From an uncultured virus (IMG/VR IMGVR_UViG_3300027754_000077) (taxonomy: Duplodnaviria; Heunggongvirae; Uroviricota; Caudoviricetes): 20,000 nt of DNA. Under the pieces are notes generated by a model that saw nothing but the letters and a program-made list of their open reading frames with translations, was not told where the DNA came from and made no database searches. A program made the position numbers and the translations under genes. Location: IMG/VR virus record IMGVR_UViG_3300027754_000077. One strand, 5' to 3'. Below, in pieces: positions 3,031 to 17,925 of this stretch (positions are counted from its first letter, which is position 1; every line of letters begins with the position of its first letter).

Positions 3031-3231
3031 ATGATTAGAGCTTACAACAAAATATTGAATATTGTAAATGACAATTTTAATATTGCTCTATCTGAAGATC
3101 ATGGAGATTGTGATGATAGGATTTCAAAAAATCTTATTGAAGAAGCAAAAATACATTGTATCGTTGATGTTTTAATTGAACATGGTTATGTTGATTCAAA
3201 TCATAGAATTTTTCCAGATTTTACTTCGTAA
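3031..3231 (+). CDS. Small acidic hypothetical protein
   Basis: 66-aa ORF with AGG at -33 (2998), ending 9 nt before the RNase gene. Confidence 0.6.
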   Translation: MIRAYNKILNIVNDNFNIALSEDHGDCDDRISKNLIEEAKIHCIVDVLIEHGYVDSNHRIFPDFTS

Positions 3232-3240
3232 AGGATAAAA

Positions 3241-3657
3241 ATGAAAATAACTAAAACAATATTGAATTTAACTGCTTTTTTTGCTGTTTTTTCTTCTTCT
3301 TATTCACAAGCTACTTTTGGCAGACCACATATAAACTCTGTTATCGGACGAGTGAATGTTTTACCAAATGTAAGAGTGATTGATTTTGGAAGGTTGATAT
3401 ACCAAGGTAGAATGGATGTCAATCCTACGGTAGAAAGAATTAGATTGGGTAAAAAATTAAACCACAATAATGATGGTACATTTTTTTCTAATTCCCTACG
3501 TAAACTTCCAGTAAGCACAGATGTTCAATATTATAGAGAATTTGTCCATCAAATGAACGGTTTTCCTTTCCCAGGCTCACAAAGAGTGGTAATTGGAAAA
3601 AAAGGTGAAGTTTTTTATACAGGTGATCATTATTCAACTTTTTTTAGAGTAAGGTAA
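3241..3657 (+). CDS. Secreted microbial ribonuclease (barnase/RNase Sa family)
   Basis: Signal peptide (MKITK...AFFAVFSSSYSQA); motifs FSNSLRKLP, YYREF, GSQRVV and FYTGDHYSTF keep the catalytic Glu/Arg/His. SD-like AAGGA upstream. Confidence 0.85.
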   Translation: MKITKTILNLTAFFAVFSSSYSQATFGRPHINSVIGRVNVLPNVRVIDFGRLIYQGRMDVNPTVERIRLGKKLNHNNDGTFFSNSLRKLPVSTDVQYYREFVHQMNGFPFPGSQRVVIGKKGEVFYTGDHYSTFFRVR

Positions 3658-3676
3658 AATTGTGTATAAATAGTAC

Positions 3677-4684
3677 ATGAGTGAAATTGCATCTGAGAAT
3701 AAATTAGTTGAAAAAACACAGTCTGAAAAAGCTATTTCAAAAAAAAATGAAGTGGATGATGAGCCAGAAAAAAGAATTATTTACTTAGCATCTGAATTAC
3801 CTGGGGTCCCAGAAGTAATAGATCTTATTAATTACGATACATCCCCACCTTACATTTCTATTTTTGAGGATAAAGAAGGATTTTTGGAAGCTGATGCTAG
3901 TCTTATTTATCAGGATGAGCGCAAAACACAACGCTTGCGTCCATTATCAGGCTCAAGCTTAGATTCGAAAATACCTAAGGAAAAGGATAAAACAACATTT
4001 CGAGAAAGATTATTACATAAAAAAAGTTCATTTCTGTCTAGAGCAATTTTTTTGATTAATCTTTTCTTTTTGAAAGAAAAATACTCAAATTTTTTCACGA
4101 ATTTTAATTGGGGAATAGCCCCACAGCTAATGCCAGAAGATGTTTTTCAAGCAAAAGTTTTGAACTTGACTAAGTTTAATCGCAATAAATTGATGAAAAA
4201 GCATGGCATCAGTGAAGCAGAACTCAATTTTATTGCTTTTGCTAGGTTTCGTTATCCGTTTATAACAAGAGGTGAAGAAGAGTGGACAGAAATTGAAAAA
4301 AACGCCTTAGCATTCATTAAAAGAGGCTGGATATCAGAAGACATTAGGGGTAATTTCAAAATAAATGTTGGAAATGTTTACGAATTCAGAGATAGCATTA
4401 TTTTTTCTGAGCAATTTAAAGACATTATTTTCAAAAAAGTTTTTAAATCAAAGACTTTGCATAAGATTTTGAGGAAGATTGAAAGAAGTGCGAAAACTCA
4501 AGTTCACATTTATAATATCTCTCAAATTAGCAAACTTCCTTTCACACAATTCGGGAATAGCAATAGCTCTACACATTCTATTGTTGGTAAAAATGACTTA
4601 GAGGTGAGCAATTCAATCAAAAAAGAACCTATTTGTTTCACGAAAGATAGAATTTTAAAAGTAAAAAAAACTGAAACTTTTTAA
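3677..4684 (+). CDS. Hypothetical protein
   Basis: 335-aa ORF preceded by GTGTATAAAT-N5-ATG; no family recognised. Confidence 0.7.
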   Translation: MSEIASENKLVEKTQSEKAISKKNEVDDEPEKRIIYLASELPGVPEVIDLINYDTSPPYISIFEDKEGFLEADASLIYQDERKTQRLRPLSGSSLDSKIPKEKDKTTFRERLLHKKSSFLSRAIFLINLFFLKEKYSNFFTNFNWGIAPQLMPEDVFQAKVLNLTKFNRNKLMKKHGISEAELNFIAFARFRYPFITRGEEEWTEIEKNALAFIKRGWISEDIRGNFKINVGNVYEFRDSIIFSEQFKDIIFKKVFKSKTLHKILRKIERSAKTQVHIYNISQISKLPFTQFGNSNSSTHSIVGKNDLEVSNSIKKEPICFTKDRILKVKKTETF

Positions 4685-4731
4685 AAGGTAATTACGTCTT
4701 ATAATCATAATATTTAAAAAAGGAAACTAAA

Positions 4732-4785
4732 ATGACAAATTCGCTACGACATCTCTATCCAGCCTACGCACCCTCATCGGGGTAG
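4732..4785 (+). CDS. Leader peptide of tRNA array 1 (MTNSLRHLYPAYAPSSG*)
   Basis: AAGGAAA SD-like site, ATG 4732, TAG 4783-4785, ending 27 nt before an intrinsic terminator. Confidence 0.75.
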   Translation: MTNSLRHLYPAYAPSSG

Positions 4786-4822
4786 TGGCTAGTCGCGTAT
4801 TTGACAAGCTACAAACCCCCGA
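4777..4822 (+). promoter_or_regulatory. Antiterminator hairpin of attenuator 1
   Basis: TCGGGG (4777) pairs with CCCCGA (4817-4822, terminator 5' arm); GTGGCTAGTC pairs with GACAAGCTAC. Confidence 0.7.
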
Positions 4823-4849
4823 AGGACAAAAACTTTCGGGGGTTTTTTT
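4813..4849 (+). terminator. Intrinsic terminator (attenuator) upstream of tRNA array 1
   Basis: AAACCCCCGAAGG-acaaaaa-CTTTCGGGGGTTT followed by a T run. Confidence 0.9.
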
Positions 4850-4853
4850 ATTA

Positions 4854-4873
4854 TGAACATTGACAATTAAATA
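4854..4873 (+). promoter_or_regulatory. boxA-like antitermination element
   Basis: TGAACATTGACAATTAAATA, 17/20 identical to 9488-9507, and similar to rrn boxA TGCTCTTTAACA. Confidence 0.5.
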
Positions 4874-4965
4874 TCGTGGTGGTACCAAGGTTGAATTAAA
4901 CTCTCTCTAAGTGGTGACCCGTAAGTGGATGACTAAGGACGCCCTTCATCCAGCCGAAAATTCAT

Positions 4966-5044
4966 CTACATGTTGAGGAGTTTGGCTTACCTCGCAATCC
5001 TTGGGAGATTGAGTACGCTGGTTCAAATCCAGCCATGTAGACCA
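4966..5044 (+). tRNA. trnP: tRNA-Pro(UGG)
   Basis: Acceptor CTACATG/CATGTAG, anticodon arm CAATC-CTTGGGA-GATTG, TTCAAAT T-loop, encoded CCA. Confidence 0.9.
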
Positions 5045-5049
5045 AGTTT

Positions 5050-5134
5050 GGGGATATCGCATAGCGGCAATTGCAGAAGACTGTAAATCTTCTATCGAAA
5101 GATTTCGTAGGTTCGAGTCCTACTGTCCCCACCA
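5050..5134 (+). tRNA. trnY: tRNA-Tyr(GUA)
   Basis: GAAGA-CTGTAAA-TCTTC, long variable arm, CCA. Confidence 0.95.
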
Positions 5135-5141
5135 AATTTTC

Positions 5142-5220
5142 GTGAAATGGGACTGCTGGGGGTGGTCGCCAAGCTTGCACCTTGGATATCAGGTGGGTTC
5201 GAATCCCACATTTTACACCA
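5142..5220 (+). tRNA. trnA: tRNA-Ala(UGC)
   Basis: CCAAG-CTTGCAC-CTTGG, G3:U70 pair, A73, CCA; atypical G8 and D-arm. Confidence 0.88.
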
Positions 5221-5224
5221 TAAT

Positions 5225-5307
5225 ACCGAAGTGGCGTAATGTAGCCGCGATAGTCTTAGAAACTATTGTCTTTTGACGTGTGGGTTCAAATCCCACCTTC
5301 GGTACCA
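5225..5307 (+). tRNA. trnL: tRNA-Leu(UAG)
   Basis: ATAGT-CTTAGAA-ACTAT, long variable arm, ACCGAAG/CTTCGGT acceptor, CCA. Confidence 0.93.
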
Positions 5308-5310
5308 CAT

Positions 5311-5387
5311 AAGTGAGTAGCTTAAATGGTAGAGCTCTTTGGTTGTGACCCAGAGGCGCGTGGGTTCAAATCCCACCTCACTGACCA
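5311..5387 (+). tRNA. trnH: tRNA-His(GUG), atypical acceptor end
   Basis: TTTGG-TTGTGAC-CCAGA anticodon arm; A1:G72 mismatch, A73, no encoded G-1. Confidence 0.85.
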
Positions 5388-5701
5388 TTTTTTAAATCAT
5401 AAAATATTCTTGGAACATATTTAAAGTTCATGAAATTCATTTGTTGTGTATTTTTTTCTTCATTAAATAAAGGCTCTTCAATAACTGCTGGTGGTTCAGG
5501 TATAGGTGGCTTTATAAGCGCAGGCTCGTTAGCAGGCGAATTTTGTTTTTGGTTATATTCTCTTCCTAAAATTTTACAGGTTTCACAAGTGTTTCCAGTA
5601 AATTGCCAGATTGTGTTCCCCCCTGGCATTTGTTCAATGTAGCATTTGCAACCTTCATGTACCGGAGGTAGAATTTTTTTTTGAGAATATCTATACCACA
5701 C
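5378..5701 (-). CDS. Small Cys/His protein with MuF-like (PPxHxxCxC) motif
   Basis: PPVHEGCKC...W...TCETC; GTG start MWY; AGG at -34. Confidence 0.7.
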   Translation of the reverse strand: MWYRYSQKKILPPVHEGCKCYIEQMPGGNTIWQFTGNTCETCKILGREYNQKQNSPANEPALIKPPIPEPPAVIEEPLFNEEKNTQQMNFMNFKYVPRIFYDLKNGQ

Positions 5702-5736: not shown

Positions 5737-7449
5737 CTAAGTTGAGGGTCTATACCACGGGAATAAGGTCCCCAACTGTTTTTTAATCTTATCTGATATA
5801 TTTGGATTAATTTCAAGACTATAAGGATTTATGCGACCAAATTCTGCAAATTCTTTGATGAATCTTTCAGACAATTTTTGGTTACGTGAAATCACAGTCC
5901 AATCCACACGGTCTGCAAAATCTTTGATCAAATCCTCAGACAATTTTTGGTGCCATGAAATTTCCTTCCAATTCACACGGTCTGCAAATTCTATGATGAA
6001 ATCCTCAGACAATTTTTGTTTAGCTGAAATACTCCACCAATCCACACGGTTTTTAAATTCTCTGATGAATTCTTCAGATAGTGGTTGTTTACGTGAAATT
6101 TCATTCCAATCCACGCGGTCTGCAAATGTTCTAATTACTTTTTCAGGTATTGGATAATTCTTCAAGACTTTATCCATGTCTAAACTGTCTTCGAAATCTA
6201 AAATAAAATCTCCAGATAGTGTTTGGTATTGTGAAATTATGTCCCAATCCAAACTGTCTGCAAATTCACGAATGAATTCTTCAGACAATAGTGGGCGGCT
6301 TGAAATCAAATCCCAAGCTACACGATCTGCACTTAATCCCTTACTAAACAAGTATCTCAGCATTTCTTCTGGTGCGTTAACATAATAAAAATTATAATTA
6401 TTTATACCTTTTTCATTTATGATTTCATCAATTAATTCAAAATCTCCAGATCTCAAAGCATAGTCTTTTACACGCCAATCATCATTCCCAAGATGTTTTT
6501 TAATCTCTTCTATTGCAATGTTTCTTCTTCTGTTATAAGTGGCTCTGTATTGATTATTGCCAAAAAGCATAGCTTTTTGGCTTGGAGGGATACTAATTCC
6601 TGTATTAAGATATTGTTCAATCAAAAAATCAGCTGTATTATTTGATGTCACAGATTGTAAATTAATAATAGACTCTAATTGTTGATCAGTTAAAAGATGC
6701 CCCCTGCCTATATATTTAGATTTATATTCTGCTGGCAACTCTTCAAACCAATTTGGTGTAACATTTCTTTTTCCTAATAATTCATTTTCTTTTCTTTCTT
6801 CTTCTGTTACGGGTTTATTTACAAATATTGATGTATCTACACCATTTTGTCTAAGATAATCAAAATAAGTTTCATAATCATTGCCAAACTCAGCTATTGT
6901 CCCAGTTTGATTATTTTTGTCAGTAAGTTTTACGATACCTTTTGCTTGCATATCAACCATCACTCTTGATAATGGATCTTCTGGTGGTCTTGTCCCATCA
7001 CTTACATAGTAAAAAGTGGATTGGTAATTATCCCTGTAGGATTGAAACATTGTATTTCCAGGTTGTGATATACACCATGATGTTCCTGCACCATATCTAA
7101 TTGTATCGTTAACACTATTACAAGCAAATACTTGTATCTCTCCAGGTGTAAAATTAATTTTTTCTTTAGTTAATTCTTTTTGTTCTTTTTTTTGTTTTAA
7201 AAAAATCAATTCAGTATAAAGAGCGTCCACTGCTTCGGTAAATTCAAGAAAATCTGTGTAAAATTTATTATCGAACATCACTCCATCTTTTCTTAATTCT
7301 ATAATTGGAAGTTTATTTGCTTTATCAAGCTCATTTAGTCTCTCACTAAGTTGGGAAGTATTGTGCCCTTGATTACTGAAATAATCTGCAATCTTCCTTA
7401 TTATATGTTCTTTGCCAGCTATAATTATTTTTGCAAATCTATACCACAC
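5737..7449 (-). CDS. Tryptophan-repeat protein, paralog A
   Basis: 570 aa; N-terminal GAGTSWCIS domain and C-terminal 23-aa repeats (LSEEFIREFxDRVDWxxISxxQ). Confidence 0.9.
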   Translation of the reverse strand: MWYRFAKIIIAGKEHIIRKIADYFSNQGHNTSQLSERLNELDKANKLPIIELRKDGVMFDNKFYTDFLEFTEAVDALYTELIFLKQKKEQKELTKEKINFTPGEIQVFACNSVNDTIRYGAGTSWCISQPGNTMFQSYRDNYQSTFYYVSDGTRPPEDPLSRVMVDMQAKGIVKLTDKNNQTGTIAEFGNDYETYFDYLRQNGVDTSIFVNKPVTEEERKENELLGKRNVTPNWFEELPAEYKSKYIGRGHLLTDQQLESIINLQSVTSNNTADFLIEQYLNTGISIPPSQKAMLFGNNQYRATYNRRRNIAIEEIKKHLGNDDWRVKDYALRSGDFELIDEIINEKGINNYNFYYVNAPEEMLRYLFSKGLSADRVAWDLISSRPLLSEEFIREFADSLDWDIISQYQTLSGDFILDFEDSLDMDKVLKNYPIPEKVIRTFADRVDWNEISRKQPLSEEFIREFKNRVDWWSISAKQKLSEDFIIEFADRVNWKEISWHQKLSEDLIKDFADRVDWTVISRNQKLSERFIKEFAEFGRINPYSLEINPNISDKIKKQLGTLFPWYRPST

Positions 7450-7519: not shown

Positions 7520-9265
7520 TTAGGGTTTTTTAAATTTTAGCTTGTAATAAACATTGAGTTTGGTTTGTCTTGAGATTTTAGGGTTTTGTGAAATCCCATC
7601 CCAACTCAAACGTTCTGCAAATTCTTTGATGAAATCCTCCGATAGTGTTTGATTGAATGAAATCCCGCGCCAATCCACACTATCTGCAAATTCACGAATG
7701 AATTCTTCAGATAGTGTTTGTTTTTTTGAAATATTATACCAATTCACCTTATCTTTGAATTTTCTGATAAAATCTTCGGATAGTGTTTGGTAATGTGAAA
7801 TATTACCCCAACCCAAACGACCTGCAAAATCTTTGATGAAATCCTCAGATAGTTTTTGACGCCGTGGAATTTCATCCCAAATCACACGGTCTACAAAATT
7901 TCTAATTATTTTTTCAGGTATTGGATAATTCCTCAAGACTTTATCCATGTCTAAACGTTTAGCAAATTCTAAAATAAAATCTCCAGATAGATTTTGGTAA
8001 GAGGAAATATAATTCCAATACACATCATCTTTGTATCTTCTGATAAAATCTTCAGATAGTATTTGCATTCGTGAAATCTCAAACCAACCAAGACGATCTT
8101 GAAATTCTTCAATAAAATTTTCAGATAGTGAATTGTCTGAAACCCACTCCCAAGCTACATTATCTGCACTTAATCCCTTGCTGAACAAGTATCTCAGCAT
8201 TTCTTCGGGTGCTTTTATATCATAAAAATTTCTTATGTCTTTTTCATTTATGATTTCATCAATTAATTCAAAATCTCCATGTTCTAAAGCATATCTTGTT
8301 AGACTATACTTATCATTCCCAAACTCTTCTTTAATCTCTTTTATTGCAATTGCTCTTCTTCTGTCATAAGTGTCTTTGTATTGTTTTTTGCCAAAAAGCA
8401 TATCTTTTTGACTTTGAGGAATACTAACTCCTGTATTAAGATATTGTTCAATCAAATATCCAGATATTGTTGGTAAATTAATAATGAATTTTAATTGTTC
8501 ATCCGTTAAAAGATGTCCTCTTCCTATATATTTAAGTTGTAATTTTAATGGTAACTTTTCAAACCAATTTGGTGTAACATTTCTGTATTCTAATAATTCA
8601 TTTTCATTTATTTCTTCTTCTGTTAGAGTTTTATTTACAAATTGTGATGTATCTACACCGTTTTTTCTAAGATAATCAAAATAAGCTTCATGATCTTCGT
8701 CAAACTCAGCTATTGTCCCAGTGCGATTATTTTTGTCCGTAAGTTTTACGATACCATTTGCTTGCATATCAACCATCACTCTTGATAATGGATCTTCTGG
8801 TGGTCTGGTGCCATCATTTACATAGTAAAAAGTAGATTGGTATTTATTCTTATAGGATTGAAATTCTGTATTTCCAGGCTGTGATATACACCAACTTGTT
8901 CCTGCGCCATATCTAATTGCGTCATTGACATCATTGCAGGCAACTACTTGTATCTTTCCTGGTACAAAATCAATTTTTTCTTTAGTTAATTCTTTTTGTT
9001 CTTTTATTTGTTTGGAGAAAACTAATATAGTATGAAGAGCATCTACAGCTTCGGTAAATTTAAGAAAATCTGTGTAAATGTTATTATCAAACATCACTCC
9101 ATCTTTTCTTAATTCTATAATTGGAAGTTTATTTGCTTTATCAAGCTCATTTAGTCTCTCACTAAGTTGGGAAGGATCCTGCCCTTGATCGCTAAAATAT
9201 TCTGCAATCTTCCTTATTATATGTTCTTTGCCAGCTATAATTATTTTTGCAAATTTATACCACAC
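7520..9265 (-). CDS. Tryptophan-repeat protein, paralog B
   Basis: 581 aa; tandem duplicate of 5737-7449 with a closely similar N-terminal half and a diverged repeat array. Confidence 0.9.
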   Translation of the reverse strand: MWYKFAKIIIAGKEHIIRKIAEYFSDQGQDPSQLSERLNELDKANKLPIIELRKDGVMFDNNIYTDFLKFTEAVDALHTILVFSKQIKEQKELTKEKIDFVPGKIQVVACNDVNDAIRYGAGTSWCISQPGNTEFQSYKNKYQSTFYYVNDGTRPPEDPLSRVMVDMQANGIVKLTDKNNRTGTIAEFDEDHEAYFDYLRKNGVDTSQFVNKTLTEEEINENELLEYRNVTPNWFEKLPLKLQLKYIGRGHLLTDEQLKFIINLPTISGYLIEQYLNTGVSIPQSQKDMLFGKKQYKDTYDRRRAIAIKEIKEEFGNDKYSLTRYALEHGDFELIDEIINEKDIRNFYDIKAPEEMLRYLFSKGLSADNVAWEWVSDNSLSENFIEEFQDRLGWFEISRMQILSEDFIRRYKDDVYWNYISSYQNLSGDFILEFAKRLDMDKVLRNYPIPEKIIRNFVDRVIWDEIPRRQKLSEDFIKDFAGRLGWGNISHYQTLSEDFIRKFKDKVNWYNISKKQTLSEEFIREFADSVDWRGISFNQTLSEDFIKEFAERLSWDGISQNPKISRQTKLNVYYKLKFKKP

Positions 9266-9354
9266 AATCTGAATTTCAAGAAAAAAATAAAAAAACCTAA
9301 TTTTTACAGAACAAATAGGAGATTGTGTCGTATATATATAATAAGGAAATAATT

Positions 9355-9420
9355 ATGAAATTAAATTTGCAGGGCAGTATTGGATGTTTTATGTGGTCAA
9401 CCCAAGGGGGTAGTGGCTAA
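9355..9420 (+). CDS. Leader peptide of tRNA array 2 (MKLNLQGSIGCFMWSTQGGSG*)
   Basis: AAGGAAA SD-like site, ATG 9355, TAA 9418-9420, ending 27 nt before the terminator. Confidence 0.75.
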   Translation: MKLNLQGSIGCFMWSTQGGSG

Positions 9421-9456
9421 AATCCTGCTGTAAGCAAAATTTTCACCAAAATCCCT
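9406..9456 (+). promoter_or_regulatory. Antiterminator hairpin of attenuator 2
   Basis: AGGGG pairs with TCCCT (terminator 5' arm), with nested GTG/CAC, AAAAT/ATTTT and TGCT-gta-AGCA helices. Confidence 0.6.
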
Positions 9457-9486
9457 GAAGACCAAAAAAACTTCAGGGATTTTTTT
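9448..9486 (+). terminator. Intrinsic terminator (attenuator) upstream of tRNA array 2
   Basis: AAAATCCCTGAAG-accaaaaaaa-CTTCAGGGATTTT followed by a T run. Confidence 0.9.
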
Positions 9487-9487
9487 A

Positions 9488-9507
9488 TGTACTTTGACAA
9501 TAAAATA
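9488..9507 (+). promoter_or_regulatory. boxA-like antitermination element
   Basis: TGTACTTTGACAATAAAATA directly after the terminator; conserved with 4854-4873. Confidence 0.5.
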
Positions 9508-9511
9508 ATGA

Positions 9512-9587
9512 GCGATATTGATGTTAATGGTTAGCATACCTGGCTTCCAACCAGATTGTGTCAGTTCAAGTCTGACATATCGCTCCA
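9512..9587 (+). tRNA. trnG: tRNA-Gly(UCC)
   Basis: GCGATAT/ATATCGC acceptor, U73, CTGG-CTTCCAA-CCAG, CCA. Confidence 0.92.
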
Positions 9588-9591
9588 ATAT

Positions 9592-9667
9592 GGATTTCAG
9601 GTGTAGCTGGTGTGCACGAAGCGCTGAAGACGCTTAGGATAGAGTTCAATTCTCTGGGAATCCACCA
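9592..9667 (+). tRNA. trnF: tRNA-Phe(GAA)
   Basis: AAGCG-CTGAAGA-CGCTT, GGATTTC/GGAATCC acceptor, CCA. Confidence 0.88.
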
Positions 9668-9677
9668 AATTTTTTAA

Positions 9678-9764
9678 GGAAGGTAATGCTGAATGGTTTT
9701 GGCGAATGTTTGCTAAACATTTCGGACTGAAAGGTCTCTGGTTCAATTCCAGTGCCTTCCTCCA
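9678..9764 (+). tRNA. trnS: tRNA-Ser(GCU)
   Basis: AATGT-TTGCTAA-ACATT, long variable arm, CCA. Confidence 0.9.
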
Positions 9765-9828
9765 TATACGGGGAGTGACCAGTTGGCTCTGTGCAGGAGT
9801 GGTTTTATTAAGTTTTGAATATTCACAT

Positions 9829-10335
9829 ATGAGAAAACCAAACACTCAATGCTCAATCTGCTCGAATGAAATTTATCGCAGACCATTTCAAATAAAAGCA
9901 CAAATAAAATTTTATTGTTCTAGTTGTAATCCATCTAAAAAAACAAATAAACTTGCAGAAAAGAAATGCCCAGTGTGTCAAAATTTTTTCAAACCAGATA
10001 GTTCAAAATCTACATTTTGTAGTCGTAGTTGTTCAAATAAAAGCCGTTGTGGAATTCATTACCGCAAAGATGGAAATGTATGGAATAATAAATCTAAACT
10101 CAGATTGTCAATACTTTTGACTGAGTTTGCTATTACATCTTGTATGGTTGAGGGATGCAACTATAATATCACTTATGATATTCATAGACACATACCTGGA
10201 AAAGAAGGTGGTGAATATAAAATAGGAAATATGTTTGCTATCTGCCCAAACCATCATGCAGAGGTTTCTCGCGGTATAATTATTTTGGAAAAAGTAAGCG
10301 ATAGTAAATTAAAAATAAAGGAAGTGCTGTCATAG
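9829..10335 (+). CDS. Free-standing HNH homing endonuclease with N-terminal Cys zinc-finger repeats
   Basis: DIHRHIPGKEGGEYKIGNMFAICPNHH and CPVC...FCSRSC. The start is most likely ATG 9829 (AGG at -34); the track's start at 9706 lies inside tRNA-Ser. Confidence 0.85.
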   Translation: MRKPNTQCSICSNEIYRRPFQIKAQIKFYCSSCNPSKKTNKLAEKKCPVCQNFFKPDSSKSTFCSRSCSNKSRCGIHYRKDGNVWNNKSKLRLSILLTEFAITSCMVEGCNYNITYDIHRHIPGKEGGEYKIGNMFAICPNHHAEVSRGIIILEKVSDSKLKIKEVLS

Positions 10336-10406
10336 GTGTGATAAACCGTCTTGAAAACGGCTGGGCTGATAAGGTCTTGAGAGTTCGAATCTCTCCGCTT
10401 CCGCCA
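10320..10406 (+). tRNA. trnS: tRNA-Ser(UGA)
   Basis: GGAAGTG/CGCTTCC acceptor, CCGT-CTTGAAA-ACGG, long variable arm, G73, CCA; the 5' end overlaps the last HNH codons. Confidence 0.88.
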
Positions 10407-10413
10407 AGTTTAT

Positions 10414-10487
10414 GTTGTCTCTAGCTCAGTTGGTAGAGCGTCCCACTGCAGGGGAAGGCGAAGGTTCAATTCCTTCGGGCAACACCA
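10414..10487 (+). tRNA. tRNA-like gene with aberrant anticodon arm (identity undetermined)
   Basis: Good D-arm, T-arm, acceptor and CCA. The anticodon arm is only TCCC-ACTGCAG-GGGA (4 bp, no U33). Confidence 0.65.
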
Positions 10488-10493
10488 TTTTAC

Positions 10494-10580
10494 TGAGGAA
10501 TAGTGTAATTGGTAACACGCTAGGTTTTGACCCTAGAGACATATTTGCTTGTCCACGTTCGAATCGTGGTTCCTCAGCCA
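10494..10580 (+). tRNA. trnQ: tRNA-Gln(UUG) with extended variable region
   Basis: CTAGG-TTTTGAC-CCTAG, U1:A72, G73, CCA; 16-nt variable region. Confidence 0.88.
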
Positions 10581-10581
10581 T

Positions 10582-10656
10582 ATCCGAGTAGCTCAATGGC
10601 AGAGCATAATCTATATAAGATTGAGGTTTTTGGTTCAAATCCAAATTCGGATACCA
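10582..10656 (+). tRNA. tRNA-Ile(UAU)-like, A at position 33
   Basis: TAATC-TATATAA-GATTG, ATCCGAG/TTCGGAT acceptor, A73, CCA. Confidence 0.7.
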
Positions 10657-10661
10657 ATTTC

Positions 10662-10735
10662 GGCAAATTAGCTTAATGGTAGAGCGCAGATTTCATACAT
10701 CTAAGACAAAAGTTCGATTCTTTTATTTGCCCCCA
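10662..10735 (+). tRNA. tRNA with CAU anticodon (elongator Met or Ile2)
   Basis: AGAT-TTCATAC-ATCT, GGCAAAT/ATTTGCC acceptor, CCA. Confidence 0.85.
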
Positions 10736-10738
10736 AAC

Positions 10739-10812
10739 GCACGATTAGCCAAGAGGCAAGGCGAGGGTCTGCAAAATCCTGATCACTGGTTCAAGTCCAG
10801 TATCGTGCTCCA
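10739..10812 (+). tRNA. trnC: tRNA-Cys(GCA)
   Basis: AGGGT-CTGCAAA-ATCCT, U73, CCA. Confidence 0.93.
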
Positions 10813-10815
10813 TAT

Positions 10816-10889
10816 ACCAGAGAGAGTAGGTTGTTCCAATAGGTCTTCGAAACCTTTTTGCCTGGGTTCAAATCCCAGCTCTGGTGCCA
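10816..10889 (+). tRNA. trnR: tRNA-Arg(UCG), degenerate D-arm
   Basis: AGGT-CTTCGAA-ACCT, ACCAGAG/CTCTGGT acceptor, good T-arm, CCA. Confidence 0.75.
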
Positions 10890-12216: not shown

Positions 12217-12762
12217 ATGACATTAAATTGTAATATTCCCCATTTCGAATGTTATGTGAAAAAAGAATTTTTAACCAACTTTACACAATCTGATGCTTTG
12301 ATTAAAGCTAAAGCTTTTGCTATTAGTAGCACTAGAGGGCAGGTGCTGCAATTTCATGTTTTAACAGAACATGGAGCAATGTTTTCCAAACTTCCCGTTC
12401 ATTCTTTAGTATTGAAAAAAGATTATGAAAAAATGAATTTAGAAAATTTAGTCACTTATGATGCTTTTAGTTTTCATGTTTCTAATATCACTTATGATTA
12501 TTTAAAGTATTTAAGATGTGAATATTATTCGGGCGAAAAAAGAATTAAATATGATGCCACTTACTTCACTACAGTGGATTTTTATGATTCTGAATATTCT
12601 GATCATCCAGGCATAGCAAAATGCTGTCACATTTTATTTTTAGACAATGGCAACATTGCAGCTGCGCCAAACAATAGAATTTTGTGGCATGATACAGGAT
12701 TGCAGCCAGATGTTTCTAAAATAGATTATAAGCCATTGAATAAAATTTTTACAGTAGAATGA
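12217..12762 (+). CDS. Conserved phage hypothetical protein
   Basis: 181 aa; LNCNIP and GNIAAAPNNRILWHD resemble motifs I recall from uncharacterised phage proteins. Confidence 0.75.
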   Translation: MTLNCNIPHFECYVKKEFLTNFTQSDALIKAKAFAISSTRGQVLQFHVLTEHGAMFSKLPVHSLVLKKDYEKMNLENLVTYDAFSFHVSNITYDYLKYLRCEYYSGEKRIKYDATYFTTVDFYDSEYSDHPGIAKCCHILFLDNGNIAAAPNNRILWHDTGLQPDVSKIDYKPLNKIFTVE

Positions 12763-13544
12763 AAATATTTTTTGATCATATTCTTTTTCAGCAAACTGAT
12801 TATAATTTTAATCATACACTTGTTACAGCAATTTTTGAAAAAGATGAATTTGATTATGCTTTAGAAAATGGTTTTTTCCCTGATAATTTTTGGCTCAATG
12901 AAAATACCAAACATTCAATTCGATGTAAAAAACCTGGCGAATTTGTTTGGGTTCCAGTGAGATCTTCTAGAATTGTAGTGAAAGATTTTGTTTTGAATAA
13001 AAAAGATAGAAGATTGTTAAAAAATAATGTTTTAACAAAAAATGTAAAAGCCAATGAAATAAATTATGAAGAATTTTATGAAGTGTATTTGAAATATATT
13101 CGTGCAAAAAAATTTGAAGATTATAAAGACAATTTACAAGATTTTATAGATGGTTTTTGCCGAAATGATTTTGAGTTTTTAGAATATAGGCTAGACAATA
13201 AACTTATTGGTTTTTGCTTGATTCAAGTTTTTCAAAATAGTTTAGTATCATACCAATTTTGCTGGGATTATGAAAATTCTAAATTGAGTTTAGGTAAATT
13301 TTCACAAATACAAGAAGTGGAGTATGCTAAATCATTAGGATTTGATTATGTTTACATTGGCTGTGTTGCTGAAAATGCAGGAATTTATAAAATAAATTTT
13401 CCAGGCTTTGAATATTATAATTCTGGCAAGTGGCGAAGAAAAGACAGTTTAATTCAAAAATGGCTTGGAAATGATTCAGATTGTGTGAGTATTTTGGAAC
13501 TTTTGTGTTTAGAAAAAGAATATATAAAGGATTATAGCGTATAA
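12759..13544 (+). CDS. Aminoacyl-tRNA--protein transferase, ATE1/Bpt-like (ATE_C GNAT fold)
   Basis: LEYRLDNKLIG...SYQFCWD...LSLGKFSQIQEVEYAKSLGFDYVYIG...YKINFPGFEY matches the ATE C-terminal pattern. Confidence 0.8.
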   Translation: MKIFFDHILFQQTDYNFNHTLVTAIFEKDEFDYALENGFFPDNFWLNENTKHSIRCKKPGEFVWVPVRSSRIVVKDFVLNKKDRRLLKNNVLTKNVKANEINYEEFYEVYLKYIRAKKFEDYKDNLQDFIDGFCRNDFEFLEYRLDNKLIGFCLIQVFQNSLVSYQFCWDYENSKLSLGKFSQIQEVEYAKSLGFDYVYIGCVAENAGIYKINFPGFEYYNSGKWRRKDSLIQKWLGNDSDCVSILELLCLEKEYIKDYSV

Positions 13545-13561: not shown

Positions 13562-14269
13562 GTGTTAAAGTCGATTTTATATTTAAATTATTTAGATAGT
13601 ATTAGCAAATACAAAAAAGCAGATACACAATCTTTATTAATTTTAAAAAAATTTGCAATGACTAACGCAGATGCATACAGAATTTTAAATGTATCTGCAA
13701 ATTCCTCACCAGAAGAAATAAAATCTGCATACAGAAACATGGCATTAAAATTTCATCCTGATATTAATCCAAATGCAAACCCTGATGAAATGATTAATAT
13801 TAATCTTGCATATGAAAAAATTAAAGAAGCACCTTTACAGAACTCACCTAGTAATCAAAGTAATTATAACAATAATAATTATCGGGATAACGATTTTGAA
13901 ATTGCTAATCGCTTAAAAGAACAAAAGGAAGATCTCAGAAAAAATTTACCTAAAATTAAAGAATTTTTTATCAACCAATTATTTAATTCTGAAATTTTTA
14001 AAAAATTATGGAGCTCTGATGAATTAATTATATACAATAAAAAAAGAAGAAAGCATTTTAAGAAAAAATATGAGAATTATGAATTTCCTCTACACGATAA
14101 TTTATATGATTTTATTTACGATTTAATAAAAATAATTGAAAAAAAATATCCATTTGCCGCTTTTTATACTACTAATTTTATGAATATTTTAGAAACCGCA
14201 AAGGTTTATGGGAAAAATCCAAAAGATGAAATAAGTAAGTATTTTGATGATTATTTCTCTGAATTTTAA
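13562..14269 (+). CDS. DnaJ (J-domain) protein
   Basis: AYRILNVSANSSPEEIKSAYRNMALKFHPDINP with an intact HPD motif. Confidence 0.9.
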   Translation: MLKSILYLNYLDSISKYKKADTQSLLILKKFAMTNADAYRILNVSANSSPEEIKSAYRNMALKFHPDINPNANPDEMININLAYEKIKEAPLQNSPSNQSNYNNNNYRDNDFEIANRLKEQKEDLRKNLPKIKEFFINQLFNSEIFKKLWSSDELIIYNKKRRKHFKKKYENYEFPLHDNLYDFIYDLIKIIEKKYPFAAFYTTNFMNILETAKVYGKNPKDEISKYFDDYFSEF

Positions 14270-14661
14270 TCTTCTGGCTCAAAATATGTTACTAGAGTGA
14301 TAGCTTCAGATTTATTTGTAAACATGGGGAAAAATCTTTCTTCTGTTCTTAAAACATAATTTACATTGTCATCTGGAATTATTTCAGCTTTTACTAGGCA
14401 ATCAATAATAGCTTTATTTACATTATCTATATCTGATTTACGAGTAAAGCCTCTGCCCTGTACAACTTTTATTTCAATTTCAATAGGAAATTTTTCAGCT
14501 TTATCTAAGCCTTCTTTCATTAAATTTATATTTAAGTCTAACCAATTTTTATAAGCTTTAGATTTAACTAATCCATATTTTTTGGATACAGAATACATTT
14601 TGTTTTTTGAAATTGGTGGACCCAAAGTAATTGATTTTCTTTTAATAATAAGATTGTACAC
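14266..14661 (-). CDS. rusA: RusA-family Holliday junction resolvase
   Basis: PPISKN and DIDNVNKAIIDCLVKAEIIPDD signature. Confidence 0.85.
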   Translation of the reverse strand: MYNLIIKRKSITLGPPISKNKMYSVSKKYGLVKSKAYKNWLDLNINLMKEGLDKAEKFPIEIEIKVVQGRGFTRKSDIDNVNKAIIDCLVKAEIIPDDNVNYVLRTEERFFPMFTNKSEAITLVTYFEPED

Positions 14662-14667
14662 AAATTA

Positions 14668-16716
14668 TTAAGAAGCCCCACCTTTCCAAAGTTGCCGGAA
14701 CATCCTTGATCTTCCACCAGGAAAAGCGTACTCGGGAACAGTTACTGTTCCCATGATTGGTCGAACAGCAATTGGAAGTGTTTTAAGCAATTCATTGAAT
14801 TCCTCCTGATACATTTTGACAGTTTCTTTCAGATTACTTACAGCATCAAAACTTCCAGATTCAGGATCCATAACTAATAATCTCCTTTCCCTTTGATTTA
14901 AACCTACCAGTAGTTGTCTTAACAAGTAATAAGTAGCCCCCACGACAAGAGTGGCATCATAGTAAAATGGAACTGTAGCTACACTGTAAATTTTGTTCAA
15001 ACCAGGTTTTGAGTTTATTGTTTGCAAGGCTAAATACAAAGCATTGTTTATTTGAGCATTTGTAAACATTTTGACATAATAAGATACAAGTAAAGTATCG
15101 TATTCTTGTATGCTGACAGGACTTCCATTGACATCAAAGAAATAAAATTTTCCTTCATTGGTAAATCTATAAAATAAACCATTGGGGTAATTATTAGTCA
15201 ATGTAGATGGATTATCAAATGGATCACTCAGCGATTGATCTAAACTATTGTAGAAACCAGTATAAGGGCTTAGAACAAACATGCTTGATCTTTGTCCGCC
15301 ATTAGTTGAACATGTAATTCTTACTTGTGGGGCAGGATCAGTAACTAAATCACCATATGCTAAAGTTGCAGATGTTCTTTGGTATCCATATAGAGGTTCT
15401 TCATCATAAACTGGAACTCTTAGAAGGGCATTTAATTCATATAAAACAGAAGATTTCAATAATAACTCATCTCCGGTAAATGGCGGTATGGATAATGTTG
15501 ACGAAAAGTCAAAATTAGTTTGTTTAACATAATATGTGTCAGCGGGATTGCCTGAATTATCAATAAATTCGTTGAGCGGCGCTGCCACGCTTGCTACAAA
15601 ATCCAATGCTGCAGGAATATATGTTAGTCGGTTATTTGCATCCCCAACAACAATGTTAAAATAGGCGTCTTCTGCAACACAATTTGGCGCGTCAAATTGT
15701 AAATAGTTTACTCCTGTTGAACCAACTGTGTTCACAATCTGACCAATTGTTGAAGTTTCACTTGCAGTGGATTCCAGTGAATATCCCACTCCATTAAAAC
15801 CATAAGTTTTTGTATTAACAGTGTATGATGCTGAAGCCACAACATTTACAGTATCGTTATAAGAATCACAAGCAACAAGAATTCCAAAATGATTATATAT
15901 TAACGCAGACCAGATTTGATCAGATGGTGTTAGTGTATAATTGAGAGCCCACTGTGTGGAAGTATTACCTAAATTTAAGTTACCATTGTAAATCCATTCC
16001 GATATATTATTATCTGAGTCAGCAATGGCTACTTTTGAGCCGTCATAAGAAGCCATTTTTTTAATTGAGTTGCTTAAGCCATTAGTTGAATCTATAATTA
16101 CACCTGTGGTGCCTGATCCAAGTAAAGCATTGTTTCCACTCATTGAAATTGAACCAGCATAAACATAACTTCCATAAGAATAATAAATATTGTCTTTATA
16201 AAAGTTAAAATCAAAATCTAAATAGTTTGTAGTGTTAATGCCTGTCAGTGTTGCATAGTGAATTGAATTGTTTTTGGTGAATGTGGAATTTGAAAAGTTA
16301 AAAACAGTTAAAAATGATGCAAACCCAACCATTATTACCTCACTTGTTCCAATTGTGCTTACTTTCAAAGAAACTGGTGAAGCTGAGCCTAAAGAGTTAT
16401 TATTTGCAAAACCTTGAGTTACAAAAGTGTCTCCTACTTTTTTATAAGCAATTAAGCCAGATTGATTTAAACAGTATAAATATGTTGTCCCAGATCCTAA
16501 AGCTAAAGGCAATCCTAAGTTTTGTGTTGATGAGTTTGTGTAATTAGATACAGTTAGAGGAAATCTGTAATCAGTGTTGGCTTGTCCTTTGAAAATTAAA
16601 GATTGTGTTGAAGGAAAATTTGTGTCTGGATCCCATGATACATATACGCCAGGATAGTGTGCGCTATTATTATATTCTCCTATTAAACCTTGCTGAAATG
16701 GTACTGCACTAGGCAT
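14668..16716 (-). CDS. Putative virion protein: beta-propeller/NHL-like region plus C-terminal neck/adaptor-like domain
   Basis: S/T/N/G-rich beta region, an NHL-like FDAPNCVAEDAYFNIVVGDANNR segment and a helical C-terminus. Confidence 0.65.
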   Translation of the reverse strand: MPSAVPFQQGLIGEYNNSAHYPGVYVSWDPDTNFPSTQSLIFKGQANTDYRFPLTVSNYTNSSTQNLGLPLALGSGTTYLYCLNQSGLIAYKKVGDTFVTQGFANNNSLGSASPVSLKVSTIGTSEVIMVGFASFLTVFNFSNSTFTKNNSIHYATLTGINTTNYLDFDFNFYKDNIYYSYGSYVYAGSISMSGNNALLGSGTTGVIIDSTNGLSNSIKKMASYDGSKVAIADSDNNISEWIYNGNLNLGNTSTQWALNYTLTPSDQIWSALIYNHFGILVACDSYNDTVNVVASASYTVNTKTYGFNGVGYSLESTASETSTIGQIVNTVGSTGVNYLQFDAPNCVAEDAYFNIVVGDANNRLTYIPAALDFVASVAAPLNEFIDNSGNPADTYYVKQTNFDFSSTLSIPPFTGDELLLKSSVLYELNALLRVPVYDEEPLYGYQRTSATLAYGDLVTDPAPQVRITCSTNGGQRSSMFVLSPYTGFYNSLDQSLSDPFDNPSTLTNNYPNGLFYRFTNEGKFYFFDVNGSPVSIQEYDTLLVSYYVKMFTNAQINNALYLALQTINSKPGLNKIYSVATVPFYYDATLVVGATYYLLRQLLVGLNQRERRLLVMDPESGSFDAVSNLKETVKMYQEEFNELLKTLPIAVRPIMGTVTVPEYAFPGGRSRMFRQLWKGGAS

Positions 16717-16756
16717 ATTATATTTTTATGGAAAAAATGTATTATGCCTTTGCGAT

Positions 16757-17581
16757 TCATTTTTCATCTTCGATAATTATTTCTTCAGCAAAATCCATAT
16801 CATCAGAATTGATGTCAACGTCAAAATCTACTGCATCTTTAATACCAAGCTCACCATCATCATCGAAATCATCAAAGCCTACGATGTCTCTTAAAAGATT
16901 TGCTTTCATAGTTACATCTTCAAGAGTAACATCTGACATATCTTTTGCTTCTTTATTTAAACTAGTCATTTGTGCTTTAACTACACCTGTGTGGTTTGCT
17001 GAATCATTAGCAGGTACAGTATAATAGGCATTTGAAGTTTTTTGATTATTTGAAGCAGTTCTTTGTGCCAAAAGCTTTGGTACAATTCCAGGATCTGATT
17101 CAACAATATGAGCAAATTCTTCAGCAGTCAATACTTCACCTTGATCTTCATGATATCTTGATGCAATTTCGTAAGCTGTTACATAAGACATAGGGTGGCT
17201 TGCTGTTCCAGAGATATCTAACTCACCACTTTTTCTTTTTCCTTTTTCTAAGTCAATGGTATCAACATCTAAAATTTTATCATCTGTTTTAAGTTTTCTA
17301 AAATTTTCTTTTTGTTGTTGCTCTCTCATAAGTTGTTTTTTTTCTTTTTGATACTGCATCTCCATTGTTTTTTCATATTCAGCTTCTGAAAGTTTTCTTA
17401 AAATTCCGTTTCTAATAGAATCTTTCAAATTTCTGGATCTTTTAATAACATTTTCATCTTCCCATGTTAAATCTTTAACTTCAGTTGGTGCAAATGTTAA
17501 ACCAATATCACTCACTGAATGCCAGCCAAGTGTAATATTTTGAACAATAAATGTTTCTCTTTCTGCGCTAGAATTTGCCAT
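16757..17581 (-). CDS. Hypothetical protein with acidic C-terminus
   Basis: Long ORF; likely start ATG 17581 after GTGTATAAAT-N5 (the track uses GTG 17596). Confidence 0.75.
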   Translation of the reverse strand: MANSSAERETFIVQNITLGWHSVSDIGLTFAPTEVKDLTWEDENVIKRSRNLKDSIRNGILRKLSEAEYEKTMEMQYQKEKKQLMREQQQKENFRKLKTDDKILDVDTIDLEKGKRKSGELDISGTASHPMSYVTAYEIASRYHEDQGEVLTAEEFAHIVESDPGIVPKLLAQRTASNNQKTSNAYYTVPANDSANHTGVVKAQMTSLNKEAKDMSDVTLEDVTMKANLLRDIVGFDDFDDDGELGIKDAVDFDVDINSDDMDFAEEIIIEDEK

Positions 17582-17595
17582 AAAGTATTTATACA

Positions 17596-17925
17596 CTAAA
17601 AATCAGATAATTTTTTGCTTCCATTTTTAAACTCATTACCGAGCCAATATTCATTTGAAATATTTTCTCTAGAATCAGGCGGTGCATCTTTTTTTCTTTT
17701 GTGCGTTTCATCTTTCATCCATTTTCCTGATTCTAATCTTTTTTCACTAGCACCAAGTTTTTTTTGATTAGAAGTTCTACCTTCTTTTGTTGAAAAAGAA
17801 TCAAATATTCTTTTCATAGTACCTTCTCCGCAAGGACAAACCATTTCTGATTTATAATCATTTAAAGAAAGGTGAATTTCATGAATCGAGTTATCACAAG
17901 TGCATCTGAATCTGAAAAGCGGCAT
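17596..17925 (-). CDS. FmdB-family zinc-ribbon protein
   Basis: MPLFRFRCTC...CPCGEGTMKRIFDSF; the family N-terminus supports ATG 17925 as the start. Confidence 0.8.
   Translation of the reverse strand: MPLFRFRCTCDNSIHEIHLSLNDYKSEMVCPCGEGTMKRIFDSFSTKEGRTSNQKKLGASEKRLESGKWMKDETHKRKKDAPPDSRENISNEYWLGNEFKNGSKKLSDF

Follow-up and report, generated by a model that had tools for sequence, protein, structure and literature searches.

Leader-peptide attenuators are familiar from amino-acid operons (trpL, hisL and pheL, together with the multivalent thr and ilv types), where the control codons of the leader stand in runs, and from genes of aminoacyl-tRNA synthetases, as in pheST/pheM. The class has been defined, and the three-hairpin ilvBNC attenuator of Corynebacterium glutamicum described, elsewhere (PMC11857589). 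Aminoacyl-tRNA synthetase genes are also preceded by hisS leader peptides and T-boxes, and the bacterial attenuator survey that treats them, in its excerpted text, names synthetases and mentions neither tRNA arrays nor phages (PMC2965389).

Here we describe a 20,000-nucleotide stretch of an uncultured Caudoviricetes virus (IMG/VR record IMGVR_UViG_3300027754_000077; herein referred to as the window), in which two blocks of tRNA genes (arrays 1 and 2) are each preceded by a leader ORF, a terminator and a boxA-like motif (attenuators 1 and 2, all on the + strand). Like the attenuators of amino-acid operons, attenuator 1 combines a short leader carrying control codons with an anti-antiterminator, an antiterminator and an intrinsic terminator, such that a stall would lead to read-through; unlike them, it is phage-borne, has tRNA genes as its target and is followed by a boxA-like motif, its product would be the sensed molecule, and its control codons stand for five isotypes, with one or two codons apiece and no runs. 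It resembles synthetase attenuators and T-boxes in that the charging state of tRNA would control a gene of the translation apparatus, whereas those systems control synthetases, one amino acid each, and T-boxes bind tRNA directly and without translation. The tRNA L-array (trn operon) of Anabaena PCC 7120 is likewise a horizontally moving tRNA array that is turned on under translation stress, but it is under promoter control by tandem 9-nt repeats, and the terms "attenuat", "leader", "terminator" and "boxA" do not occur in the text of that paper (PMC8421152). A boxA-like motif before a long untranslated RNA also recalls the NusB/S10 antitermination of rrn operons and CRISPR arrays (PMC13753749, PMC6614797, PMC12360218); in contrast to those systems, the motif here would be transcribed only past a translation-gated terminator and would serve phage tRNA genes.

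The sequence and its predicted folding supply every structural part of an attenuator (leader ORF with ribosome-binding site, terminator, antiterminator and anti-antiterminator). Because the regulated genes are tRNAs, rather than genes whose products make or charge an amino acid, we regard the locus as a variant and not as a classical member of the class. The sole Rfam match is to His_leader over 4749-4851 (26.8 bits, E 0.99, below the cut-off of 49), and the hallmarks of a T-box (stem I specifier loop, antiterminator bulge) are not recognized, there being no such Rfam match at E up to 1. The mechanism is textbook; its target, tRNA sub-arrays, is not found in the open-licence literature, since no description of attenuators ahead of tRNA genes was found in open-licence PMC and bioRxiv main texts.

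Attenuator 1 and its genomic setting

The window is a section of a large phage genome that encodes a Mu gp36-like head-tail protein, an amidase, RusA, DnaJ and many unknown ORFs. Its relatives in IMG/VR are G001 (347 kb, 99% complete), to which all genome-wide statements below refer rather than to the window's own phage, and G002 (167 kb); protein-guided scans for more members of the clade returned only these two among viral contigs and none among genome contigs or in a phage collection. Two genes 5' of attenuator 1 lies a ribonuclease (3241-3657; PF00545, E 1.5e-6), a position that is kept in the related locus L001, and near the tRNA arrays is a gene with an arginine-tRNA-protein transferase C-terminal domain (12759-13544; PF04377, E 1.9e-15), an enzyme family that consumes aminoacyl-tRNA. 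Several ORFs (1155-1826, 5378-5701, 5737-7449, 7520-9265 and 13562-17596) have GTG starts, M-W-Y/M-Y-K N-termini and a common upstream motif, and the ones at 5737-7449 and 7520-9265 form a tandem pair of paralogs with repeats at their C-termini. Array 1 (4966-5387) consists of Pro(TGG), Tyr(GTA), Ala(TGC), Leu(TAG) and His(GTG) as called by ARAGORN; in L002 (15133-14708) it has an additional Leu(GAG) gene, and the leader there has two CTC codons and one CTA.

Upstream of the leader are two possible -10 elements of a leader promoter (TATAAT at 4700-4705 and TAATAT at 4708-4713), which are only partially conserved in homologs and are not among the 60 sites listed in a site scan; similar hexamers directly precede unattenuated tRNA genes of G001. 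A Shine-Dalgarno-like AGGA (4721-4724) stands 7 nt before the leader ATG and is invariant in all six homologs, with a gap of 6-9 nt. Leader ORF 1 (4732-4785) has 17 codons, MTNSLRHLYPAYAPSSG-TAG, and footprint geometry places its sensing zone at about codons 7-13 (4750-4770). Folded each on its own, the three helices that had been predicted form at the positions claimed for them: the 1:2 helix, an anti-antiterminator and likely pause hairpin (4761-4790, -12.3 kcal/mol), the 2:3 antiterminator (4777-4822, -21.4 kcal/mol), built from a base helix 4777-4782/4817-4822 and an inner hairpin 4785-4812, and the 3:4 intrinsic terminator (4813-4849), with 13 bp in a helix at 4813-4845 (-20.2 kcal/mol) and a T run to 4849. 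The boxA-like motif follows at 4853-4865 and matches the Bacillus subtilis rrn consensus (PMC13753749) at 10 of 13 positions.

Between this motif and tRNA-Pro the window carries an optional insert of about 90 nt (4874-4962), which is present in L002, L012 and L019/L020 and absent from L001 and L008; in L019/L020 it is followed by a further insertion of about 800 nt. The insert has one conserved hairpin, a tRNA-like 5' start in L002 and a single viral match. Readings of it by eye as a tRNA remnant or an HDV-like ribozyme were rejected, as its fold is not significant (z 0.07-0.43) and drew no Rfam or ARAGORN call, and a proposed outer helix is lost in L019/L020.

Terminator 3:4 is one of seven terminator-like sites in the window where shuffles expect 9.8, so the number of such sites is by itself no evidence; it folds with z -5.9. 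When segment 3 was held fixed and 4732-4812 shuffled, 17 of 500 shuffles reached the observed pairing with segment 3 and 8 its energy, but only 2 matched both. The 1:2 helix is weak alone, being equalled by 11 of 200 shuffles. Two metatranscriptome runs contained fractions of 0.10 and 0.06 of the words, and RNA contigs span leader and terminator (X1 4716-4797 and 4812-5002; X2 4761-4911), although these are short, carry neither ends nor strand and may derive from DNA.

How the helices compete was modelled at equilibrium on nascent RNA transcribed as far as the terminator loop, with an assumed ribosome footprint of 8-13 nt. With the A site at codons 1-12, the antiterminator holds segment 3 with a probability (P) of about 0.8; P falls to 0.31 at codon 13 and lies at 0.00-0.35 for all later positions up to the stop. 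Only over five codons between 7 and 13 does a stall mask segment 1 yet leave the base of the antiterminator free, namely codons 7-11 for a footprint of 12-13 nt, 8-12 for 10 nt and 9-13 for 8 nt, and codons 7-11 (H-L-Y-P-A) are the five isotypes of array 1. The model thus bears out the proposal that a ribosome reaching the TAG favours termination by covering segment 2, and that a stall in the LRHLYPAY region frees it, which is the placement of control codons expected of an attenuator. Forcing 4777-4782 to be unpaired in silico lowers P to 0.06, in keeping with the claim that read-through depends on this segment. In ribosome-free RNA the best fold is an upstream-extended 1:2 helix as far as 4818 and 2:3 once 4822 is reached, the latter being favoured by 3-6 kcal just before segment 4 emerges. 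At equilibrium the terminator, when complete, prevails in every case, which implies that control is kinetic, as in classical attenuators (PMC11857589).

The original prediction listed leader codons CTA, CCA, GCA, TAC/TAT and CAT as read by the UAG, UGG, UGC, GUA and GUG anticodons of the array. ARAGORN gives exactly these anticodons, so the list is correct; CTA, however, falls outside the sensing zone, as a ribosome stalled at codon 5 would not reach far enough 3' to mask segment 1, and GCA (codon 13) sits at the zone's edge. The Leu and Ala codons within the zone are instead CTC and GCC, which count as matched only under our assumption that U34 reads C-ending codons. With U34 reading whole family boxes, array 1 can read eight of leader codons 2-13 (six under strict wobble), compared with 3/12 in the other two leader frames; the 8/12 match has p=0.0003 under phage codon usage, 0.004 under uniform usage and 0.02 under the leader's own base composition. 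Leader 1 has seven codons exclusive to array 1 and five exclusive to array 2, four of the latter being Ser or Gly and three lying in the structural tail, whereas leader 2 has 0 and 13, respectively (Fisher p=0.0016). The control codons of the leader therefore fit the function of the genes downstream.

Conservation, a second predicted switch and the boxA-like motif

Motif scans yielded six distinct homologs of attenuator 1 and eight of attenuator 2. Six of the 18 distinct metagenome loci (L003, L007, L013, L014, L016 and L018) were dropped as chance matches without tRNAs, loci identical to the window across elements (L005/L006/L009/L011) were not counted as independent, and two of the five matches in a relaxed motif scan were unrelated and due to chance. 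All three helices form in 14/14 distinct homologs. Leader 1 keeps its frame and its 17 codons in all six of its homologs while accumulating eight distinct synonymous changes, the five isotypes stay within codons 5-13 throughout, and the switch point falls at codon 12-13 in 6/6 at three footprint sizes. Leader 2 varies in length solely by whole codons (20-22 aa).

The terminator is paired in 167 of 168 cells (12 core pairs in 14 homologs, counted by anchoring because MAFFT misaligned the terminator), with two-sided changes at two pairs (C-G/A-U/U-A and C-G/U-A). The antiterminator is paired in 96/96 cells across six close homologs, with three one-sided changes and no two-sided ones, and the 1:2 helix in 63/66, all three breaks occurring in L002, where the helix is re-paired in another register. 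The covariation that had been suggested as a check is hence seen in the terminator and not in the antiterminator; the homolog set is so close (86-91% column identity) that covariation has little power here.

Attenuator 2 shows the same three helices upstream of array 2. Its leader (9344-9420) comprises an AGGA at 9344-9347 and an ORF at 9355-9420, MKLNLQGSIGCFMWSTQGGSG, and is paralogous to leader 1; the 1:2 helix lies at 9394-9419, 2:3 at 9406-9456, the terminator at 9448-9486 (the full set spanning 9394-9486) and the boxA-like motif at 9487-9499. Segment 2 of attenuator 1 contains a 13-mer whose only other copy in the window is at 9407, in another reading frame (0.06 expected). In the footprint model the switch point of attenuator 2 comes after Trp14, at the end of the matched block as in leader 1, and it lies at or beside the Trp in six of eight homologs, while L001 and L010 lose the antiterminator at codons 1-4. 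The antiterminator of attenuator 2 is no better than shuffles (equalled by 47 of 500), and the codon match of leader 2 is not significant by itself (p 0.04-0.29). Leader 2 also contains TGG and ATT, which its own array does not read for want of CCA or GAT anticodons; Trp(CCA) and Ile(GAT) occur in the array 2 of relatives. For Val, leader and array covary in one of three distinct Val-bearing arrays (L001, but not L002 or L017).

Array 2 (9512-10889) encodes Gly, Phe, Ser(GCT, at a relaxed threshold), Ser(TGA) and Ala, followed by Gln, Ile, Met, Cys and a Trp-like tRNA body with a TCG anticodon, and is interrupted by a 209-aa ORF. This ORF (9706-10335) is Cys/His-rich and HNH-like by eye, has no Pfam match and is missing in L001; it is possibly a homing endonuclease insertion. 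The last tRNA (10816-10889) resembles the tRNA-Trp of relatives in its body and has TCG where they have CCA. CGA codons still align with Arg (16/20 columns, Trp 0), pointing to an anticodon shift rather than evident recoding, and recoding of TAG was rejected, as TAG is a normal stop that terminates 3 of 18 ORFs.

The phage of the window is predicted to have two complementary switches in one genome, each with its own codon set. Outside both arrays, G001 has eight tRNA matches at five places (Met, Asp, Asn, Thr, Lys, Arg, Met, Glu), none of which is preceded by a leader-terminator (by eye over 330 nt) and which directly follow TATAAT at four of the five places. In the same genome (L026, contig C1 at about 13640-13960), what looks by eye like a tRNA-Leu gene interrupted by a group I-like intron lies directly 5' of a tRNA-Met.

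The TTGACA-containing motif behind both terminators occurs in exactly two copies each in G001 and G002, both of them behind attenuators. Consensus sequences for boxA are available from B. subtilis, as above, and from Escherichia coli (PMC6614797). A terminator-like tail followed by the motif has at least 120 matches in bacterial genomes, 80 of them with flanks; by raw count, a 16S or 23S start, as located by rRNA primer motifs, follows within 600 nt in 30 of these 80. The motif family thus combines an rrn-type boxA sequence with a place in rRNA leaders and spacers, although the variant in attenuator 1 is the most deviant and stands at an rRNA start in 0/2 bacterial loci that carry it. On sequence grounds, 4853-4865 is a probable NusB/S10 loading site for the read-through RNA.

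Leader-array pairing in other lineages

The same scan for a terminator tail plus boxA, which is blind to leaders and tRNAs, covers 20 viral loci and the 80 bacterial ones with flanks. A tRNA lies within 150 nt of the motif at 17 of the 100 (11 viral, 6 bacterial), of which four viral loci belong to G001/G002, L047 equals L050 in sequence and five bacterial loci are related Acidobacteria arrays. At all 17, an ATG ORF of at least 12 aa stops 40-62 nt before the 3' G run of the terminator (54-55 nt in the window's two), compared with 8 of 81 loci without a nearby tRNA (2 were too short), a contrast to be read with the provisos that the 40-62 nt interval was chosen after looking at the data and that the 17 and 81 loci are not independent.

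The arrangement of leader, terminator, boxA and tRNA array also occurs in bacterial genome contigs (L083, L093, L094, L096 and L116, from Acidobacteria MAGs, and L121 and L182). The Acidobacteria arrays probably sit on integrated elements, because similar arrays occur in the virus record G005.

Whether leaders match their own arrays was assessed in longer regions around nine of the 17 loci. With one locus kept per lineage (L181 and L182 being left out as kin of L177), seven outside pairs were tested along with the window's two; two arrays are truncated at contig ends. On average, the share of leader residues represented in the leader's own array is 0.60, as opposed to 0.34 for the other arrays, and the true pairing is equalled by 2 of 362,880 permutations, or 1 of 5,040 without the window's pairs. 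In G008 a Leu/Ser/Tyr leader precedes an array of Ser, Tyr and Leu only, and in G006 an Ile/Val/His/Trp leader precedes a Trp/Val/His/Ile array. The footprint model gives L176, L178, L179 and L180 a clear switch where the matched block ends, L177 and L181 a partial one and L175 (G003) none. Six further tRNA-block heads include two, in G006 and G010, that have a terminator and a matched leader without this boxA pattern: in G006 a second leader, Leu-rich, stands ahead of a block of seven tRNAs, all Leu, the G010 leader is Asn/His/Gly/Phe/Thr/Ala, and both have a modelled switch, with P of 0.5-0.6 falling to 0. The other four, one of them cut by the region edge, have no leader-terminator. G010 carries two predicted switches of the leader-terminator-boxA-tRNA kind.

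Proposed mechanism and alternative readings

We consider it very likely, from the sequence comparisons and the folding model, that a ribosome-mediated transcription attenuator sets the output of a phage tRNA sub-array according to how well supplied the cell is with the tRNAs encoded there. The host RNA polymerase would start about 20-30 nt before the leader, the 1:2 helix would form first and probably pause it, and a ribosome would load at the conserved AGGA and ATG. In the folding model, fast decoding of His, Leu, Tyr, Pro and Ala would bring the ribosome to the TAG, where it covers segment 2, so that the 3:4 terminator would form and array 1 stay off. Scarce, cut or uncharged tRNA would instead stall the ribosome on codons 7-13, masking segment 1 only, upon which 2:3 would capture segment 3 and the polymerase would read through, load Nus factors at the boxA-like motif and transcribe the untranslated tRNA block. 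The new tRNAs would restore decoding and close the switch, a negative feedback. Feedback on tRNA supply during infection, as host tRNAs run down or, on one hypothesis (PMC10264068), are cleaved by defence nucleases, is the likeliest role, because extra tRNA cures missing tRNA bodies and not a missing amino acid.

It is also conceivable, though we think it improbable, that a genuine switch reacts to whatever slows or uncouples translation, be it antibiotics, a lack of ribosomes or failed initiation, the codon match being secondary. Indeed, the equilibrium model favours 2:3 without any ribosome (P 0.83), the leader of G012 approaches an all-amino-acid composition, and there are precedents both in uORFs that sense many ribosome inhibitors (PMC12121999) and in a tRNA array that general translation stress turns on (PMC8421152). 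However, leaders fit their own arrays and avoid the codons of the other array, and a single phage would gain nothing from two separate switches if the signal were a general one. The general and the codon-specific readings are, moreover, compatible, as codon-specific attenuators also fire on general stalling.

Less probable still is control by a factor acting in trans at segment 2 (a phage antiterminator protein, an antisense RNA or an uncharged tRNA), with the ORF incidental or encoding a trans-acting peptide. Such a factor would account for a 13-mer that is identical in both paralogs despite their differing frames and is conserved beyond the needs of pairing, but that conservation is explained by the requirement that segment 2 pair with both segment 1 and segment 3, distant examples keep the layout without shared sequence, and Rfam returns no T-box or riboswitch match.

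The weakest reading, which we find very improbable, takes 3:4 as an ordinary terminator of the + strand genes upstream (3031-4684), the ORF as due to chance and TTGACA (4860) as the -35 of a separate tRNA promoter. In its favour, a + strand ORF does precede attenuator 1, the TTGACA hexamer is perfect for a -35 and the window's 90-nt insert offers space for a start site. Against it, no -10 at the right spacing was found by eye; the first tRNA begins 12 nt (tRNA-Pro in L001) or 2 nt (L037/L093) past the motif and hence inside any promoter, so that in L001 the motif cannot be its -35 and there is no room for a second promoter; the motif family is a mark of rRNA leaders and spacers (30 of 80 loci, out of at least 120 matches); the gene upstream of attenuator 2 is oriented away and thus leaves that terminator without a co-directional gene; and ORF, ribosome-binding site and helices are conserved.

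Comparative and folding evidence thus support the attenuator interpretation that the original prediction had put forward, which missed the boxA-like motif and overstated exclusivity in describing three mutually exclusive helices: only 2:3 excludes both of the others, and helices 1:2 and 3:4 are present together when the whole region is folded.

For more than 50 years it has been an open question what phages gain from tRNA genes, and one current hypothesis is that these genes make up for host tRNAs that defence nucleases have destroyed (PMC10264068). A block that is switched on only by slow decoding of its own codons would make the question testable, as it predicts pairs of tRNA depletion and responding block. 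More tentatively, and with the odds in our view slightly against it, these elements may form an isotype-resolved homeostat of the tRNA pool. Phages and integrated elements would then divide their tRNA genes into blocks, and the leader of each block would detect which of its tRNAs the host has cut, for instance through anticodon-nuclease defence, or exhausted, so that no others are replaced; leaders would co-evolve with their arrays, and their sequences could be read as a record of the tRNAs under attack. The terminator and boxA signature offers a simple finder for such elements, including those in Acidobacteria genomes, and a codon-matched attenuator could serve as a compact multi-tRNA biosensor. 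For the phages themselves, this would be a case of attenuation that senses its own product, and so a direct feedback on tRNA supply.
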